A stretch of DNA of 41,009 nt from Squalus acanthias (Eukaryota): contig JASTWF010000330.1 of NCBI GenBank assembly GCA_030390025.1, forward strand, positions 496,001 to 537,009. Reading direction: 5' to 3'. Made by a program: the position numbers and the translations under genes. Numbering within the stretch: the first letter of the stretch is position 1; each line of letters starts with the position of its first letter. Shown here one piece after another: positions 1 through 10,114 of the stretch. Below the pieces are notes generated by a model, which saw nothing but the letters and a program-made list of their open reading frames with translations, did no database searches and was not told the DNA's origin.

Positions 1-51
1 AGTCACATTAGGTGAACATTCTGTACAAAATGGACCGAACGAGACAGATAC

Positions 52-147
52 CTGAGACTGCAGACCCCACTGGGATAGTGAATGAACGGTCAGTGGATTC
101 TCGAGTCGACTGTTCCTCGGGTTCCTGTGCTGTGAGTGTTTCCTGAT
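52..147 (-). CDS. Repeat exon, type A: DQETLTAQEPEEQSTRESTDRSFTIPVGSAVS
   Basis: Minus strand ...ctttattacag|ATCAGG...TCTCAG|gtatct; 96 nt. Confidence 0.72.
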
Positions 148-3100
148 CTGTAATAAAGGAAGAGAGACAGGGGAGAGTGTAGAGTGGAGAAACCAGAACA
201 GGTCATCAGGCTGGTACTGGAGCCAATCACAATCCCACTCACTCACTGCGTCCGACTGCACTCAGTCTCCTCATCCCACTGCCCTAGTCTCCTCATTCCA
301 TTCCACAAAATATTCTCATCCCATTCCCCACAGTCTACTCATCCCACTCCCATCAGTCTCATCATCTCACTCCCCACAGTCACATCATCCCACTCCCCTC
401 GATCTCCTCATCCCACTCCCCTCAGTCTCGTCATCCCACTCTCCTCAGTCTCCTCATCCCACTCCCCTCGGTCTCCTCATCCCACTCCCCTGAGTCTCCT
501 CATTCCATTCCCCTCAGCCTCCTGCTCCCACTCCCCTCAGTCTCCTCATCCCACTCCCCTCAGTCTCCTCATCCCGCTCCCCTCAGTCACAACACCCACT
601 CATTCAGTAAGAGACTGGATGAGCTTTTCAGGAGTCACATTGGGTGAACAGACTGAACACAATGGACCGAACGAGACAGATACCTGAGACTGCAGACCCC
701 ACTGGGATACTGGATGAACGGTCAGTGGATTCTCGAGTCGACTGTTCCTCGGGTTCCTGTGCTGTGAGTGTTTCCGGATCTGTAATAAATGAAGAACGAC
801 AGGGGAGAGTGTAGAGTGGAGAAAACCAGAACAGGTCATCAGGCTGGAACTGGAGCCAATCACAATCCCACTCACTCACTGCGTCCGAATACCTGCAGTG
901 TCTTCATCCAGCTCCCCTTAGATTCCTCATACCATTCCACAAAATATTCTCATCCCATTCCCCACAGTCTCCTCATTCCACTCACCTCAGTCTCCTCATC
1001 ACATTCCCCTCTGTCTCTACATCCAACTCCCCTCAGTCTCCTCATCCCACTCCCCTCAGTCTCCTCATTCCATTCACCTCAGTCTCCTACTCCCACACCC
1101 CTCAGTCTCCACATCCCACTCCCCACAGTCACTTCATCCCACTCCCCTCTGTCTCCTCATCCCACTCCCCTCAATCTCCTCATTCCATTCCCTTCAGCCT
1201 CCTACTCCCACTCCCCTCAGTCTCCACATCCCACTCCCCTCAGTCTCCACATCCCACTCCCTTCAGTCTCCTCATCCCACTCCACACAGTCTCCTCAACC
1301 CACTACCCTCAGTCACAACAACCACTCACTCAGTAAGAGACTGAATGAGCTTTTCAGGAGTCACATTGGGTGAACAGACTGTACACAATGTACCGAACAA
1401 GACAGATACCTGAGACTGCAGACCCCACTGGGATGGTGAATGAACGGTCAGTGGATTCTCGAGTCGACTGTTCCTCGGGTTCCTTTGTTTTGGATATGGC
1501 CGGATCTGTAATAAAGGAAGAGAGACATGGGAGAGTGCAGAGTGGAGAAAACCAGAACAGGTCATCAGGCTGGTACTGGAGCCAATCATAATCCCACTCA
1601 CTCACTGCGTCCGACTCCCTTCAGTCTCATCATCCCACCCCCCTCAGCCTCCTCATCCAGCTCCCCAAAGTCCCCTCATCCAGCTCCCCTCAGTCTCCTC
1701 ATCCCATTACCCTCAGTCACCTCACCCCACTCCCCCCATCTCCTCATTCCACTCCCCTCAGTCTCCTCATCCCACTCCCCTCAGTCTCAACATCCCTCTC
1801 CCCTCCGTCTACTCATCCCATTCCCTTCAGTCTCGTCATCCACACTCCCTTCAGTCTCCTCATTCCACACCCCTCAGTCTCCTCATCCCACACCCTTGAG
1901 TCTCCTGTTCCCACTCCCCTCAGTATCCTCATCCCACTTCCCTCAATATCCACATGCCACTCCCCTCAGTCTCCTCATCCCGCTGCCCTCAGTCACGAAA
2001 TCCAATCACTCAGTAAGAGACTGGATGACCTTTTCAGGAGTCACATTAGGTGAACATTCTGTACAAAATGGACCGAACGAGACAGATACCTGAGACTGCA
2101 GACCCCACTGGGATAGTGAATGAACGGTCAGTGGATTCTCGAGTCGACTGTTCCTCGGGTTCCTGTGCTGTGAGTGTTTCCTGATCTGTAATAAAGGAAG
2201 AGAGACAGGGGAGAGTGTAGAGTGGAGAAACCAGAACAGGTCATCAGGCTGGTACTGGAGCCAATCACAATCCCACTCACTCACTGCGTCCGACTGCACT
2301 CAGTCTCCTCATCCCACTGCCCTAGTCTCCTCATTCCATTCCACAAAATATTCTCATCCCATTCCCCACAGTCTACTCATCCCACTCCCATCAGTCTCAT
2401 CATCTCACTCCCCACAGTCTCATCATCCCACTCCCCTCGATCTCCTCATCCCACTCCCCTCAGTCTCGTCATCCCACTCTCCTCAGTCTCCTCATCCCAC
2501 TCCCCTCGGTCTCCTCATCCCACTCCCCTGAGTCTCCTCATTCCATTCCCCTCAGCCTCCTGCTCCCACTCCCCTCAGTCTCCTCATCCCACTCCCCTCA
2601 GTCTCCTCATCCCGCTCCCCTCAGTCACAACACCCACTCATTCAGTAAGAGACTGGATGAGCTTTTCAGGAGTCACATTGGGTGAACAGACTGAACACAA
2701 TGGACCGAACGAGACAGATACCTGAGACTGCAGACCCCACTGGGATACTGGATGAACGGTCAGTGGATTCTCGAGTCGACTGTTCCTCGGGTTCCTGTGC
2801 TGTGAGTGTTTCCGGATCTGTAATAAATGAAGAACGACAGGGGAGAGTGTAGAGTGGAGAAAACCAGAACAGGTCATCAGGCTGGAACTGGAGCCAATCA
2901 CAATCCCACTCGCTCACTGCGTCCGAATACCTGCAGTGTCTTCATCCAGCTCCCCTTAGATTCCTCATACCATTCCACAAAATATTCTCATCCCATTCCC
3001 CACAGTCTCCTCATTCCACTCACCTCAGTCTCCTCATCACATTCCCCTCTGTCTCTACATCCAACTCCCCTCAGTCTCCTCATCCCACTCCCCTCAGTCT

Positions 3101-6100
3101 CCTCATCCAGCTCCCCTCAGTCTCCTCATACCACTCCACACAGTCTCATCATCCCACTCCGCTCCGTCTCCTCATCCCACTCCCCTCAGTCTGATCATTC
3201 CATTCCCCTCAGCCTCCTACACCCAATCCCCTCAGTCTCCAAATCCCAATCCCCTCAGTCTCCACATCCCACTCCCCTCAGTTTGCTCATCCCACTCCCC
3301 ACAGTCTCCTCATCCCACTCCCCTCAGTCTCCTCATCCCACTACCCTCAGTCACAACACCCACTCACTCATAAGAGACTGGATGAGCTTTTCAGGAGTCA
3401 CATCGGTTGAACAGACTGTACACAACGGACCGAACGAGACAGATACCTAAGACTGCAGACCCCACTGGGACAGTGGATGAACGGTCAGTGGATACTCGAG
3501 TCGACTGTTCCTCGGGTTCCTGTGTTTTGGATATGTCCGGATCTGTAATAAAGGAAGAGAGACATGGGAGAGTGTAGAGTGGAGAAAACCAGAACAGGTC
3601 ATCAGGCTGGTACTGGAGCCAATCATAATCCCACTCATTAACTGCGCCCGACTCCCTTCAGTCTCATCATCCCACTCCCCTAGTCTCCTCATACCATTCC
3701 ACAAAATATCCTCATCCCATTCCCCACAGTCTCCACATTCCACTCAACTGTGTCTCCTCATCCCACTCCCCTTAGTCTCCTCATCCCACTCCCCTCTGTC
3801 TCCTCATCCCACTCCCCTCTGTCTAATCATCCAGTTCCCCTCAGTCTCCTCATATCACTCCCTTCAGTCTCCTCATCACACTCCCCTCAGTCTCCTCATA
3901 ACACTCCCCACAGTCACCTCATCCGACTCCCCTCAGTCTCCTCATCCCACTCCACACAGTCTCCTCATGCCACTCCCCTTAGTCTCCTCATCACACTCCC
4001 CTTAGTCTCCTCATCACGCTCCCCTCAGTCTCCTCCTCCCACTCCCATCATTCTCATCATCCCACACCCCACAGTCACCTCATCCCACTCCCCTCGGTCT
4101 CCTCATCACACTCCCCTCAGTCTCCTCATTCCATTCCCCTCAGCCTCCTGATCCCACTCCCCTCAGTCTCCTCCTCCCACTCCCATCAGTCTCATCATCC
4201 CACACCCCACAGTCACCTCATCCCACTCCCCTCGTTCTCCTTATCACACTCCCCTCAGTCTCCTCATCCCACTCCCATCAGTCTCCTTATCCCACTCCCC
4301 TCACTCTCCACCTCCCACTCCACTCAGTCTCCTCATTCCATTCCCCTCAGTCTCCTCCTCCCACTCCCCTCAGTCTCCTCATCACACTCCCCTCAGTCTC
4401 CTCGTCACACTCCCCTCAGTCTCCACATAACCCTCCACACAGTCTCCTCTTCCCACTCCCCTCAGTCTCCTCATCCCACTCCCCTCAGTCTCCTCATTCA
4501 GCTCCCCTCAGTCTCCTCGTCCCACTCCTCTCAGTCTCCTCATCCCACTCCCCTCAGTCTCCACATCCCACTCCCCACAGTCTCCTCATCCCACTTCCCT
4601 CAGTCTCCTCATCCAGCTCCCCTCAGTCTCCTCTTCCCACTCCCCTCTGTCTCATCATTCCACTCCCCTCTGTCTCCTCATCCCACTCCGCTCAGTCTCC
4701 TCATTCAGCTCCCCTCAGTCACAACACCCATTCACTCAGTAAGGGACTGGATGATCTTTTCAGGAGTCACAATGGTTGAACAGACTGTACACAATGGACC
4801 GAACGAGACAGACACCTGAGGCTGCAGACCCCACTGGGATAGTGGATGAACGGTCAGTGGATTCTCGAGTCGACTGTTCCTCGGGTTCCTGTGTTTTGGA
4901 TATGTCCGGATCTGCAATTAAGGAAGAGAGACATGGGAGAGTGTAGAGTGGAGAAAACCAGAACAGGTCATCAGGCTGGTACTGGAGCCAATCAAAATTC
5001 CACTCACTCATTGCGCCCGACTCCCTTCAGTCTCATCATCCCACTCCCCTAGTCTCCTCATACAATTCCACAAAATATTCCCATCCCATTCCCCACAGTC
5101 TCCACATTCCACTCAACTGTGTCTCCTCATCCCACTCCCCTTAGTCTCCTCATCCCACTCCCCTCTGTCTCCTCATCCCACTCCCCTCAGTCTCCTCAAA
5201 CCACTCCCTTCAGTCTCCTCATCACACTCCCCTCAGTCTCCTCATAACACTCACCACAGTCACCTCATCCGACTCCCCTCAGTCTCCTCATCACACTCCA
5301 CACAGTCTCCTCATGCCACTCCCCTTAGTCTCCTCATCCCACTCCCCTCAGTATCCTCATTCCATTCCCCTCAGCCTCCTACTCCCACTCCCCTCAGTCT
5401 CCACATCCCACTCCCCTCAGTCTCCACATCCCACTCCCCTCAGTCTCCTCATCCCACTCCACACAGTCTCCTCATGCCACTCCCCTTAGTCTCCTCATCC
5501 CACTCCCCTCAGTCTCCTCATTCCATTCCCCTCAGCCTCCTACTCCCACTCCCCTCAGTCTCCACATCCCACTCCACTCAGTCTCCTCATCCCACTCCCC
5601 TCAGTCTCCTCATCCCGCTCCCCTCAGTCACAACACCCACTCATTCAGTAAGAGACTGGATGAGCTTTTCAGGAGTCACATTGGGTGAACAGACTGAACA
5701 CAATGGACCGAACGAGACAGATACCTGAGACTGCAGACCCCACTGGGATACTGGATGAACGGTCAGTGGATTCTCGAGTCGACTGTTCCTCGGGTTCCTG
5801 TGCTGTGAGTGTTTCCGGATCTGTAATAAATGAAGAACGACAGGGGAGAGTGTAGAGTGGAGAAAACCAGAACAGGTCATCAGGCTGGAACTGGAGGCAA
5901 TCACAATCCCACTCACTCACTGCGTCCGAATACCTGCAGTCTCTTCATCCAGCTCCCCTTAGATTCCTCATACCATTCCACAAAATATTCTCATCCCATT
6001 CCCCACAGTCTCCTCATTCCACTCACCTCAGTCTCCTCATCCCATTCCCCTCTGTCTCTACATCCAGCTCCCCTCAGTCTCCTCATCCCACTCCCCTCAG

Positions 6101-9100
6101 TCTCCTCATCCAGCTCCCCTCAGTCTCCTCATACCACTCCACACAGTCTCATCATCCCACTCCCCACAGTCACCTCATCCCACTCCGCTCCGTCTCCTCA
6201 TCCCACTCCCCTCAGTCTGATCATTCCATTCCCCTCAGCCTCCTACTCCCAATCCCCTCAGTCTCCAAATCCCACTCCCCTCAGTCTCCACATCCCACTC
6301 CCCTCAGTTTGCTCATCCCACTACCCTCAGTCACAACACCCACTCACTCATAAGAGACAGGATAAGCTTTTCAGGAGTCACATCGGTTGAACAGACTGTA
6401 CACAACGGATCGAACGAGACAGATACCTAAGACTGCAGACCCCACTGGGACAGTGGATGAACGGTCAGTGGATACTCGAATCGACTGTTCCTCGGGTTCC
6501 TGTGTTTTGGATATGTCCGGATCTGTAATAAAGGAAGAGAGACATGGGAGAGTGTAGAGTGGAGAAAACCAGAACAGGTCATCAGGCTGGTACTGGAGCC
6601 AATCATAATCCCACTCACTCACTGCGCCCGACTCCCTTCAGTCTCATCATCCCACTCCCCTAGTCTCCTCATACCATTCCACAAAATATTCTCATCCCAT
6701 TCCCCACAGTCTCCACATTCCACTCAACTGTGTCTCCTCATCCCACTCCCCTTAGTCTCCTCATCCCACTCCCCTCTGTCTAATCATCCAGTTCCCCTCA
6801 GTCTCCTCATATCACTCCCTTCAGTCTCCTCATCACACTCCCCACAGTCACCTCATCCGACTCCCCTCAGTCTCCTCATCCCACTCCACACAGTCTCCTC
6901 ATGCCACTCCCCTTAGTCTCCTCATCACACTCCCCTTAGTCTCCTCATCACGCTCCCCTCAGTCTCCTCCTCCCACTCCCATCATTCTCATCAGCCCACA
7001 CCCCACAGTCACCTCATCCCACTCCCCTCGGTCTCCTCATCACACTCCCCTCAGTCTCCTCATTCCATTCCCCTCAGCCTCCTGATCCCACTCCCCTCAG
7101 TCTCCTCCTCCCACTCCCATCAGTCTCATCATCCCACACCCCACAGTCACCTCATCCCACTCCCCTCGTTCTCCTTATCACACTCCCCTCAGTCTCCTCA
7201 TCCCACTCCCATCAGTCTCCTTATCCCACTCCCCTCACTCTCCACCTCCCACTCCACTCAGTCTCCTCATGCCATTCCCCTCAGTCTCCTCCTCCCACTC
7301 CCCTCAGTCTCCTCATCACACTCCCCTCAGTCTCCTCGTCACACTCCCCTCAGTCTCCTCATAACCCTCCACACAGTCTCCTCTTCCCACTCCCCTCAGT
7401 CTCCTCATCCCACTCCCCTCAGTCTCCTCATTCAGCTCCCCTCAGTCTCCTCGTCCCACTCCCCTCAGTCTCCTCATCCCACTCCCCTCAGTCTCCACAT
7501 CCCACTCCCCACAGTCTCCTCATCCCACTTCCCTCAGTCTCCTCATCCAGCTCCCCTCAGTCTCCTCTTCCCACTCCCCTCTGTCTCATCATTCCACTCC
7601 CCTCTGTCTCCTCATCCCACTCCGCTCAGTCTCCTCATTCAGCTCCCCTCAGTCACAACACCCATTCACTCAGTAAGGGACTGGATGATCTTTTCAGGAG
7701 TCACAATGGTGGAACAGACTGTACACAATGGACCGAACGAGACAGACACCTGAGGCTGCAGACCCCACTGGGATAGTGGATGAACGGTCAGTGGATTCTC
7801 GAGTCGACTGTTCCTCGGGTTCCTGTGTTTTGGATATGTCCGGATCTGCAATTAAGGAAGAGAGACATGGGAGAGTGTAGAGTGGAGAAAACCAGAACAG
7901 GTCATCAGGCTGGTAATGGAGCCAATCAAAATCCCACTCACTCATTCCGCCCGACTCCCTTCAGTCTCATCATCCCACTCCCCTAGTCTCCTCATACAAT
8001 TCCACAAAATATTCCCATCCCATTCCCCACAGTCTCCACATTCCACTCAACTGGGTCTCATCATCCTACTCCCCTTAGTCTCCTCATCCCACTCCCCTCT
8101 GTCTCCTCATCCCACTCCCCTCAGTCTCCTCAAACCACTCCCTTCAGTCTCCTCATCACACTCCCCTCAGTCTCCTCATAACACTCCCCACAGTCACCTC
8201 ATCCGACTCCCCTCAGTCTCCTCATCCCACTCCACACAGTCTCCTCATGCCACTCCCCTTAGTCTCCTCATCCCACTCCCCTCTGTCTCCTCATCCCACT
8301 CCCCTCAGTCTCCTCATACCACTCCCTTCAGTCTCCTCATCCGTCTCCCCTCAGTCTCCTCTTCCCACTCCCCTCAGTCTCCTCCTCCCACTCCCATCAG
8401 TCTCCTCATAACACTCCCCACAGTCACCTCATCCCACTCCCCTCAGTCTCCTCATCACACTCCCCTCAGTCTCCTCATCCCACTCCCCTCAGTCTCCTCA
8501 TCCCACTCCACTCAGCCTCCTCATCCCACTCCCCTCAGTTCCCTCATCCCACTCCCCTCAGTCTCCTGATTCAGCTCCCCTCAGTCTCCTCATCCCACGC
8601 CCCTCAGTCTCCCCATCCCACTCCCCTCAGTCTCCTCATCCCACTCCCCTCTGTCTCCTCATCACACTCCCCTCAGTCTCCTCATCCCACTCCCCTCAGT
8701 CTCCTCATTCCACTCCCCTCAGTCCCCTCATCCCACTCCCCTCAGTCTTCTCATCCCACTCCCCTCAGTCTCCACATCCCACTCCACACAGTCTCCTCAT
8801 TCCACTCCCCTCAGTCTCCACATGCCACTCCACACAGTCTCCTCATCCCACTCCCCTCAGTCTCCACATCCCACTCCCCTCAGTCTCCTCATCGCACTCC
8901 CCTCAGTCTATTCATCCCACTCCCCTCTGTCTCTTCATTCCACTCCACACAGTCTCCTCATCCCACTCCCCACATTCTCCTCATCCCTATAGCCACAGTC
9001 TCCTCATCCCAATCCCCTCAGTTTCCTCAGCCCACTCCCCTTTTTCTCCTCTTCCCACTCCCCTCAAGCTACTCATCCCACTCTCCTCATCACACTCCCC

Positions 9101-10009
9101 ACAATCACCTCCTCCCACTCCCCTCAGTCTCCTCGTCCCACTCCCCTCAGTACCACATCCCACTCCCCACAGTCTCCACATCCCACTCCCCACAGTCTCC
9201 TCATCCCACTTCCCTCAGTCTCCTCATCCAGCTCCCCTCAGTCTCCTCTTCCCACTCCCCTCTGTCTCCTCTTCCCACTCCCCTCTGTCTCCTCATCCCA
9301 CTCCCCTCAGTCTCCTCATTCCACTCCCCTCAGTCCCCTCATTCCACTCCCCTCAGTCTACTCATCCCACTCCCCTCAGTCTCCACATCCCACTCCACAC
9401 AGTCTCCTCATCCCACTCCCCTCTGTCTCCTCATTCCACTCCCCTCAGTCCCCTCATTCCACTCCCCTCAGTCTTCTCATCCCACTCCCCTCAGTCTCCA
9501 CATCCCACTCCACACAGTCTCCTCATCCCACTCCCCTCTGTCTCCTCATCCCACTCCCCTCAGTCTCCTCATTCAGCTCCCCTCAGTCTCCTCATTCAGC
9601 TCCCCTCAGTCTCCTCGTCCCATTCCCCTCAGTCTCCTCCTCCCACTCCCCTCAGTCTCCTCATCACACTCCCCTCAGTCTCCTCCTCCCACACCCCTCA
9701 GTCTCATCATCACACTCCCCACACTTTCCTCATCCCACTTCCCACAGTCTCCTAATCCCACTCCACTCAGTCTCCACATCCCACTCCCCTCAGTCTCCTC
9801 ATCCCTCTACCCTCAGTCACAATACCCACTCACTCAGTAAGAGACTGGATGAGCTTTTCAGGAGGCACATTGTGTGAACAGACTGTACACAATGGACCGA
9901 ACGAGACAGATACCTGAGACTGCAGACCACACTGGGATAGTGGATGAACGGTCAGTGGATTCTCGAGTCGACTGATCCTCGGGTTCCTGTGTTGTGGATG
10001 TGTCCGGAT
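52..10009 (-). CDS. Partial spliced gene: 11 tandem 96-nt phase-1 exons encoding a 32-aa S/T/E/P-rich (mucin-like) repeat region; start and stop lie outside the window
   Basis: All 11 copies have a pyrimidine tract + CAG upstream and GT downstream on the minus strand, are exactly 96 nt with no indels, and have no stop in the phase-1 frame (junction codon G|AT = Asp). Phase 0 has TAG in two copies; phase 2 has TGA in all. The product class is inferred from composition only (about one third Ser/Thr, acidic, no Cys). Confidence 0.72.
684..779 (-). CDS. Repeat exon, type B: DPETLTAQEPEEQSTRESTDRSSSIPVGSAVS
   Basis: tttattacag|ATCCGG...TCTCAG|gtatct; 96 nt; in frame with ORF 628..879(-). Confidence 0.72.
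780..845 (-). promoter_or_regulatory. Representative 3' splice signal (candidate branch point, pyrimidine tract, CAG); repeated in every cassette
   Basis: Minus strand cctgatgacctgttctggttttctccactctacactctcccctgtcgttcttcatttattacag: about 60 nt free of AG, pyrimidine-rich, with yTnAy-like CTGAT at its 5' end. Confidence 0.6.
1410..1505 (-). CDS. Repeat exon, type C: DPAISKTKEPEEQSTRESTDRSFTIPVGSAVS
   Basis: tttattacag|ATCCGG...TCTCAG|gtatct; 96 nt; in frame with ORF 1354..1605(-). Confidence 0.72.
2090..2185 (-). CDS. Repeat exon, type A: DQETLTAQEPEEQSTRESTDRSFTIPVGSAVS
   Basis: Same as 52..147 at offset 2038; AG/GT intact. Confidence 0.72.
2722..2817 (-). CDS. Repeat exon, type B: DPETLTAQEPEEQSTRESTDRSSSIPVGSAVS
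   Basis: Same as 684..779 at offset 2038; AG/GT intact. Confidence 0.72.
3447..3542 (-). CDS. Repeat exon, type D: DPDISKTQEPEEQSTRVSTDRSSTVPVGSAVL
   Basis: tttattacag|ATCCGG...TCTTAG|gtatct; the TTA G end is Leu in phase 1 but a stop in phase 0. Confidence 0.7.
   Translation of the reverse strand: MRTYPKHRNPRNSRLEYPLTVHPLSQWGLQS
4816..4911 (-). CDS. Repeat exon, type E: DPDISKTQEPEEQSTRESTDRSSTIPVGSAAS
   Basis: ttaattgcag|ATCCGG...CCTCAG|gtgtct; flanks diverge from other types but AG and GT are kept. Confidence 0.7.
5725..5820 (-). CDS. Repeat exon, type B: DPETLTAQEPEEQSTRESTDRSSSIPVGSAVS
   Basis: tttattacag|...|gtatct; 96 nt; in frame with ORF 5669..5920(-). Confidence 0.72.
6427..6522 (-). 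CDS. Repeat exon, type D variant: DPDISKTQEPEEQSIRVSTDRSSTVPVGSAVL
   Basis: tttattacag|...TCTTAG|gtatct; 96 nt; in frame with ORF 6371..6622(-). Confidence 0.7.
   Translation of the reverse strand: MRTYPKHRNPRNSRFEYPLTVHPLSQWGLQS
7750..7845 (-). CDS. Repeat exon, type E: DPDISKTQEPEEQSTRESTDRSSTIPVGSAAS
   Basis: ttaattgcag|...CCTCAG|gtgtct; 96 nt; in frame with ORF 7694..7945(-). Confidence 0.7.
9914..10009 (-). CDS. Repeat exon, type F (first in transcript order): DPDTSTTQEPEDQSTRESTDRSSTIPVWSAVS
   Basis: tttattacag|ATCCGG...TCTCAG|gtatct; 96 nt; in frame with ORF 9858..10109(-). Confidence 0.72.
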
Positions 10010-10114
10010 CTGTAATAAAGGAAGAGAGACATGGGACAGTGTAGAGTGGAGAAAACCAGAACAGGTCATCAGGCTGGTACTGGAGCCGATCACAATCCCA
10101 CTCACTCACTGTGT

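Follow-up and report, generated by a model that had tools for sequence, protein, structure and literature searches.

A minisatellite-embedded array of 96-nt exons in Squalus acanthias and the putative stalked D10C protein to which it may belong

The exon array and its surroundings on the scaffold

The window analysed here, a stretch of 41,009 nucleotides, forms the last 41 kb (496001-537009) of scaffold C2562 in the 3.7-Gb genome of Squalus acanthias. A sequence scan of the window identified, between positions 52 and 10009 on the minus strand, eleven 96-nt cassettes bounded by AG and GT, each encoding 32 residues. These units are almost certainly real exons, and the block that they form is most probably active; they probably make up the stalk of a secreted, microbe-binding protein with a D10C head, a putative role that is weighed below. 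Numbered along the minus strand, they were placed by the cassette scan at 9914..10009 (exon 1, phase 1-1), 7750..7845 (exon 2), 6427..6522 (exon 3), 5725..5820 (exon 4), 4816..4911 (exon 5, identical in sequence to exon 2), 3447..3542 (exon 6), 2722..2817 (exon 7), 2090..2185 (exon 8), 1410..1505 (exon 9), 684..779 (exon 10) and 52..147 (exon 11). All eleven have a (T/G)CAG-type AG on the acceptor side and GT on the donor side, and they are separated by introns of 536-2068 nt. Each acceptor is preceded by a 61-62 nt zone free of AG, with 79-85% pyrimidine at -42..-4 and a YTNAY motif at about -60 (the region in front of exon 1, at 10010..10074 on the minus strand, is a sample), and the AG-free-run analysis revealed that the eleven zones are the eleven longest AG-free runs in bases 1-10100. 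Concatenation of the cassettes gave no stops in phase 1, compared to two in phase 0 and eleven in phase 2. The scan thus bore out the original prediction of eleven minus-strand AG/GT exons hidden in minisatellite and open only in phase 1. The encoded stalk (352 AA) contains 42% P+T+S, 33% S+T and 21% D+E, and so has the P/T/S-rich repeats of a proline/threonine/serine-rich (PTS) mucin domain, with a moderate content of these residues and an unusually acidic character.

Tandem-repeat analysis showed that a 23-bp minisatellite (261..9818) occupies most of the introns between the exons, and that a second 23-bp minisatellite extends over 31 kb, from 10108 to 41007, up to the scaffold end. The latter comprises 1360 copies of its unit with 92% matches and runs uninterrupted, without a unique island; the same unit also occupies the introns of neighbouring blocks. 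This 31-kb satellite upstream of exon 1 is likely an unusually long expanded intron. A hidden exon within it was considered and rejected, as none of its 100-nt bins deviates from the unit.

Only 7 distinct exon sequences were found among the 11 window copies, and blocks of 2-3.3 kb recur in the array at 93-94% identity; the identical exon copies were made by recent block duplications. Because the copies are recently duplicated and, within the window, their flanks are conserved as strongly as the exons, the invariance of length and AG/GT to which the original prediction had pointed, while indeed observed, is weak evidence of selection by itself.

The scaffold survey, which covered C2562 outside the window from 166 to 496 kb, revealed 45 close cassette copies arranged in three blocks: A1 (plus strand, 388.6-406.7 kb, 13 copies, the last one cut by a gap), A2 (plus strand, 460-480.5 kb, 14 whole copies and 2 fragments) and A3 (minus strand, 485.4-506 kb, 18 copies). 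Eleven copies of A3 lie inside the window and seven more below its base 1, at C2562:485414-495467 on the minus strand; the predicted number of eleven is therefore right for the window and too low as a total. Block B (minus strand, 407-458 kb) consists of 12 whole and 3 shortened copies of a more distant type. At C2562:437986-449543 three type-B cassettes, spaced with a periodicity of ~5.7 kb, are devoid of the 5′ half and the acceptor, which were lost to satellite invasion. The three changes of orientation on the scaffold coincide with 500-N gaps at 406762, 459647 and 484812 and are therefore read as a product of scaffolding; inverted gene pairs, considered as the cause of the opposite orientations at 406-485 kb, were rejected on the same ground.

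The intron pattern typical of the close copies gave 30 matches in the genome, all of them on C2562, and in a tree of the cassettes the window copies intermingle with those of A1 and A2. The best identity of the window cassettes is 92-95% to A1, A2 and a neighbour gene on the same scaffold, and 75-83% to block B and to six stretches on other scaffolds. Directly after the last A2 cassette, at C2562:480618-484588, we found a near full-length long interspersed nuclear element (LINE) with broken frames, presumably CR1-like, and further LINE pieces lie on C2562 at 381.2-383.8 kb and 489.6-490.8 kb.

Splicing and frame conservation of the repeat exons

Contigs of four runs (X1 and X2 from study P1, X3 from study P2, and X4) were aligned to positions 2060-2860 of the window at 80% likeness. 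Runs X1-X3 are probable RNA runs of relatives, their sources being other organisms or paralogues of the window locus. None of the runs contains half of the words in the query, and among those listed none is recorded as RNA, which has no bearing on expression. Coverage in these three runs piles up on the exons, with shallow cover of the acceptor flank 2168-2248 in X2 and X3; all runs match the satellite. Contigs in X1, X2 and X3 break at 2090 (the end of exon 8) or 2722 (the end of exon 7) and then run into the start of another repeat exon. In record 21 of X3 (depth 120) two units lie 96 letters apart without an intron, and loose ends in X1 and X2 place the end of a D10C exon directly before the start of a repeat exon. 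Run X4 passes through the introns, as DNA would. These results show that homologous units are spliced in relatives, including the junction of D10C to the first repeat, and that each repeat is one symmetric exon spliced head to tail. Exon-exon joins at the predicted boundaries, proposed earlier as a check, were thus found in contigs of the relatives' probable RNA runs.

Frame conservation was examined in 132 distinct cassettes from eight stretches, with nine partial hits (a LINE-split pair and fragments) and hits containing N left out. A stop in phase 1 occurs in 1 of the 132, whereas each of the other five frames is interrupted far more often, in 13, 129, 110, 130 and 79 cassettes, respectively. 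Cassette lengths are 96 nt (107 copies), 81 nt (21), 93 nt (1) and 95 nt (3), and all three 95-nt copies, together with the sole stop, sit in the gene on scaffold C977, the tail of which contains a stop as well. The 60-nt flanks vary freely in length, 31 upstream and 13 downstream copies being off by non-multiples of three, differences that are not independent events since the copies share ancestry. Some defect is carried by 10 of the 132 cassettes, none of them from the close copies of blocks A1, A2 and A3 (two intron-only fragments and one gap-cut copy were left out of this count). Frame and composition of the stalk are kept, and not its exact sequence, as expected of a spacer. The C977 paralogue (C977:559547-584973), with 23 stalk cassettes, three frameshifts, two stops and lost splice sites, is likely a pseudogene.

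The predicted one-exon-per-repeat, phase-1, S/T-rich stalk is in this way supported by the spliced contigs of relatives, by frame conservation among paralogues and by annotated shark proteins with the same repeat. The array had also been expected to tune stalk length by copy number and by exon skipping. The former was confirmed: in the five genes with a stalk read end to end, stalk sizes range from 5 to ~38 units, and stalk size is set by whole-exon duplication. Skipping was seen only in automatic models of other sharks, none for the window locus. In models of Carcharodon LOC121274779 the missing portion of the stalk measures exactly 32, 33 or 65 AA, and within a Pristiophorus pair the stalks differ in length by 32 AA; among nine pairs of isoform models, 4/9 differ by whole stalk units, 1/9 in a 27-AA segment that precedes the tail and 4/9 only N-terminally.

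The contrast drawn in the original prediction with mucins that carry their repeats in a single exon was right, yet the layout itself has a precedent. In the available text on chicken Muc13 each exon of the PTS domain encodes a single repeat, and alternative splicing is proposed to control the length of the domain (PMC1552070). The exon-per-repeat layout, which the shark stalk shares, and the proposal that splicing tunes the length have thus both been published, and the novelty would lie in the host family: chicken Muc13 is described there as a transmembrane SEA mucin, whereas the shark array has D10C heads, a soluble tail and minisatellite introns.

The host family and its D10C head

The same repeat exon, with the same phase and splice flanks, was found downstream of D10C exons in a shark/ray D10C-stalk family. 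The architecture of this family is a signal peptide, one to three D10C domains, stalk exons and a C-terminal module of ~60 AA that is of either type X or type Y. In paralogues on scaffolds C977, C702, C2484 and C2450, a run of 5-23 repeat exons gives way to three small exons, designated X1, X2 and X3 (type X tail), and the stop after them was read in the C977 paralogue; in the C3432 paralogue two other exons follow the repeats (type Y tail). Genome-wide, we obtained at least 150 D10C exon matches and 53 X and 45 Y tail exon matches on 29 scaffolds, counts from which we conclude that the shark family comprises ~100 genes, some of them broken. A literature search of listings and abstract starts gave no description of the shark family.

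A protein search with the D10C exons gave 31 hits, of which the 20 named ones are all from sharks or rays and the other 11 are unnamed short ENA proteins. The homologues are laid out as a signal peptide, one to three D10C domains, S/T/E repeats in most, and a short tail. Shark/ray models in RefSeq/UniRef (XP_041038052.1, XP_067834704.1, XP_041038350.1) have a signal peptide, D10C, S/T/E repeats of 30-33 AA and an X or Y tail, and no ZP; their names ('uromodulin-like', 'GP2-like', 'OIT3-like', 'uncharacterized') are automatic. The models examined carry 0 to ~5 repeats, compared to 18 in the block of the window locus and 45 close copies, and their isoforms differ by whole repeats. Of the flanking domains suggested earlier, the signal peptide was thus found, whereas in place of Ig and transmembrane domains there are one or more D10C heads and a short soluble C-terminal module.

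A Pfam search of eight homologues returned only D8C above the cut-off, and no ZP, VWD or SEA domain in any of them (8/8). A hydrophobicity scan of the region after the first DPC motif, or of the whole protein where the motif is absent, detected no transmembrane or C-terminal hydrophobic segment in 21/21 homologues (maximum KD19 1.37). As judged from the homologues, the window's own tail being missing, the protein would be neither a gel-forming mucin, marked by VWD, nor a membrane mucin, marked by SEA and a transmembrane segment; the ZP module and glycosylphosphatidylinositol (GPI) anchor of uromodulin, GP2 and omcin proteins likewise appear to be absent from paralogues and homologues. D10C domains were predicted in the candidate head described below and in 8/8 homologues, and we infer their link to the window block. 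A protein search with the repeat unit gave 6 candidates and none at E<=0.01, a weak test for a short low-complexity query.

With respect to the tails, a search with the X-tail region returned the query alone, atlas searches with both tails gave leads under 0.9 and no nameable fold, and the profile match of X to Y was weak (probability 39%, E 3e-4). An AlphaFold2 model of a Y-type homologue, with a mean predicted local distance difference test (pLDDT) score of 64.7 and a stalk below 50, predicts one tail helix at 190-208. We take a half-SEA fold of the tail as an unconfirmed lead. X and Y tail exons often face each other at 11-21 kb, with one pair at 42 kb (C2450, C3476, C702, C977, C2562); among tail neighbours closer than 45 kb, 9/15 are convergent X-Y pairs, 7 of these 11-14 kb apart. 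Such pairing may point to a heterodimer or stem from a single duplicated block.

The best candidate head lies on C2562, ~115 kb beyond the window start. It consists of a signal-peptide exon at 344363 (open frame, matching phase) and three D10C exons at 372279, 379931 and 380101 (to 380265), all on the plus strand; the D10C exons, the first of which was found by tblastn, are open, and their phases lead into a phase-1 repeat exon. The exons of this head are intact and bounded by proper splice sites, and the domain matches Pfam PF23283 (E 8.9e-11). Homology to the decoy module of human GP2/uromodulin (PDB 7P6R, 6TQK) was found with E 1.5e-24 for a shark family member. With cysteines numbered according to the available text of PMC8930769 and an alignment of one shark family member, C3 and C6 are absent in 49/49 head copies, and C9 is present in 36/49 and lost in 13/49, the candidate head included, while the first D10C exon of shark heads contains two extra Cys. 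The ten-cysteine, five-disulfide pattern is therefore not kept in these copies. The N65 sequon of GP2 aligns to N-H-T in the candidate head and is thus retained; according to the same text, N65 of GP2 carries oligomannose and supports FimH binding (PMC8930769). The shark family further differs from GP2/uromodulin in that no EGF, ZP or GPI anchor was found, and in that its heads, devoid of the C3-C6 pair and hypervariable, stand on a long exon-built stalk. Teleost omcins (zebrafish omc1-15) similarly form an expanded cluster of multi-D10C genes, with an antibacterial role shown for omc5, in the available text of PMC11415648. That text gives omc5 an EGF, a ZP and a predicted GPI anchor, which are not found in the shark family, counts 15 genes as opposed to ~100 in the shark, and mentions no mucin stalk in its accessible part.

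Selection was examined in the candidate head and in 60 of the at least 150 D10C copies, mostly better hits; from these 61 cassettes, 9 failing intactness, 2 shortened in frame and 1 duplicate were removed, leaving 49. For these 49 intact cassettes of D10C exons b and c the proportion of nonsynonymous differences (pN) was 0.145, that of synonymous differences (pS) 0.101, and the value for the enclosed intron 0.074. The confidence interval (CI) of pN minus intron was 0.023-0.119, with 7 of 5000 bootstrap draws at or below zero, and diversity exceeded 0.5 at 23/160 first and second codon positions vs. 0/75 intron sites. Comparison of the site models M1a and M2a gave twice the log-likelihood difference (2dL) of 312.8 for the 49 heads, with 22% of codons at an ω of 5.8 and 17 selected sites, and of 188.4 for a random 20 heads. 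In the tails (20 X of 53 and 20 Y of 45, each plus a reference and mostly better hits) a positive class was not significant: 2dL was 1.3 for X exons (p 0.52) and 2.6 for Y exons (p 0.27). Relative to the cysteines, the selected sites occupy the position of the lost C3 and residues behind it, residues following C4, the loop between C5 and C7, and the neighbourhood of C9; they would lie near each other as judged from published disulfide links. Sequence comparison thus argues that the head loops are under diversifying selection.

Two further observations concern the D10C exons. In three paralogues the first D10C exon is directly preceded by a ~90% conserved 125-bp segment, situated ~6-8 kb ahead of the D10C b exon, whose opposite strand carries an acceptor and a donor separated by 22 nt; this segment was considered as the first D10C exon itself and rejected. 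A D10C exon with a different intron lies at C3:150366660-150367054, on a 208-Mb scaffold, and is possibly the family's ancestral locus, or a separate one.

Putative role, rival explanations and assignment of the window block

The family is suggested, by analogy, to work like the GP2, uromodulin and omcin decoys. Each spliced exon would add 32 residues to a likely O-glycosylated stalk of a predicted secreted uromodulin/GP2-like protein, and this stalk (33% S+T, 21% D+E) would act as a disordered spacer keeping head away from tail. The likely targets of the hypervariable D10C head are microbial surfaces or adhesins encountered in mucus, on which it would act as a decoy or binder, and its variable patch would change the target between paralogues. 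Any exon could be gained, lost or skipped in frame: the stalk would grow by unequal exchange within the satellite introns, as the block duplications suggest, and skipping would yield shorter forms without a frameshift. The tail module may oligomerise, which stays a lead since one duplicated block would also explain the convergent X-Y pairs. A role in defence is suggested by GP2, uromodulin and zebrafish omc5, a D10C and ZP relative that protects against E. coli according to the available text of PMC11415648, together with the pattern of selection. The D10C domain, familiar from ZP filaments as an unchanging glycan decoy, would here occur without the filament, on an adjustable stalk, in ~100 copies and with diversifying loops, and the family allows D10C to be tested as a variable recognition fold, and with it the mucus defence of sharks against microbes. 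With coding exons hidden in satellite and scrambled at assembly gaps, shark annotations likely under-count or truncate such genes.

Several points weigh against this reading. The aligned contigs are mostly 80-95% alike and come from relatives or paralogues, none from the window locus, and their identity as RNA is conjectural. Amino-acid constraint on the stalk exons is slight, with no third-position excess and nonsynonymous and synonymous rates (dN, dS) of 0.23 vs. 0.29 (~0.8). As for the head, the position of UMOD N275 is E in the single shark head aligned, the CI of pN minus pS alone touches zero (-0.003 to 0.089), the site test is our own code with fixed branch proportions, which gene conversion and multi-base changes can inflate, and the tail controls are short and picked among the best hits. 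Between the window block and any head lie the 31-kb satellite and the end of the scaffold, and a gap lies between it and any tail; its cassettes resemble the neighbour gene (92-95%) about as much as they do A1/A2 (92-95%), and a LINE splits the first stalk exon of the candidate plus-strand gene.

The same exons and protein could also serve a reproductive or structural job (egg jelly, egg case, seminal or skin matrix), with the head recognising gamete or self proteins. Diversifying selection is generally typical of gamete-recognition proteins too, D10C is normally found in ZP-module matrix proteins, and a term search in the main text of a proteomics study on shark skin mucus gave 0 matches for uromodulin or GP2; however, ~100 paralogues diversifying in one genome would suit pathogen-facing families over one-to-one gamete pairs, and the nearest tested relatives are antibacterial (available texts of PMC8930769, PMC11415648), so that we regard this role as unlikely. 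We likewise hold it improbable that the block, with exons of genuine origin, is an orphan or the remnant of a pseudogene, multiplied through recombination of the satellite and not spliced into a protein any more. The lack of a linked head or tail, the LINE within the candidate's first stalk exon, the failure of 9/61 D10C cassettes (one of them a distant paralogue) in the intactness check and the stops and frameshifts of the C977 gene would fit such decay, and frames may stay open after recent duplication even where selection is absent. Yet the close copies of A1, A2 and A3, though 5-8% divergent, are free of the defects seen in ten other cassettes, the candidate head is intact, and skipping of a symmetric exon broken by a LINE would not disturb the frame.

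A further reading, in which the cassette does not code and belongs to a higher-order satellite, with splice signals arising by chance, has been largely refuted and is extremely improbable. The cassette does sit in satellite, within higher-order repeats, with conserved flanks and in both orientations, the last named earlier as a sign of a dispersed element; but the flips are located at the 500-N gaps, lengths are 96, 81 or 93 nt in 129 of the 132 cassettes, indels come in multiples of three with 1 stop in the 132, exon-exon junctions occur in contigs from two studies, and the same peptide repeat is found in annotated shark proteins. Beyond the stalked microbe binder that we favour, a more far-reaching model is doubtful: a germline repertoire of ~100 secreted D10C binders, with loops varying like antigen-binding sites and 0-~50 skippable stalk exons, in which X and Y chains, the products of genes paired tail to tail, would be joined by their C-terminal modules into two-headed, antibody-like innate molecules based on the uromodulin fold. 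If it were true, the window would hold part of one of the longest stalks seen.

To which gene the window block belongs can be graded as follows. No X or Y tail exons were found by the genome-wide tail-exon searches on C2562 above 178.5 kb, so the end of the candidate plus-strand gene is missing from the assembly, and the block somewhat probably belongs to this gene, placed inverted after a gap; if all 45 close copies were used, the stalk would reach ~1,440 residues. A close third copy or haplotype is possible as its source, albeit with a lower likelihood, and the neighbour gene is an unlikely one. The latter, on the minus strand and head to head with the candidate, comprises a signal exon at 281256, two D10C domains, 38 repeat hits (mostly 81 nt) and a tail exon at 178409. 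Its stalk (C2562:219309-259190) is mostly built of the 81-nt variant, which carries a 15-nt in-frame deletion and was amplified after it. The flanks of this stalk are 92-95% like those of the window, which makes sequence exchange between the neighbour and the window-type gene likely.

Within the candidate gene, the LINE at C2562:384884-385790 in the first stalk exon is truncated and flanked on either side by a short stretch of duplicated exon sequence. The 93-nt intron between D10C exons b and c (C2562:380008-380100) is often stop-free in frame, and its retention would keep the frame.

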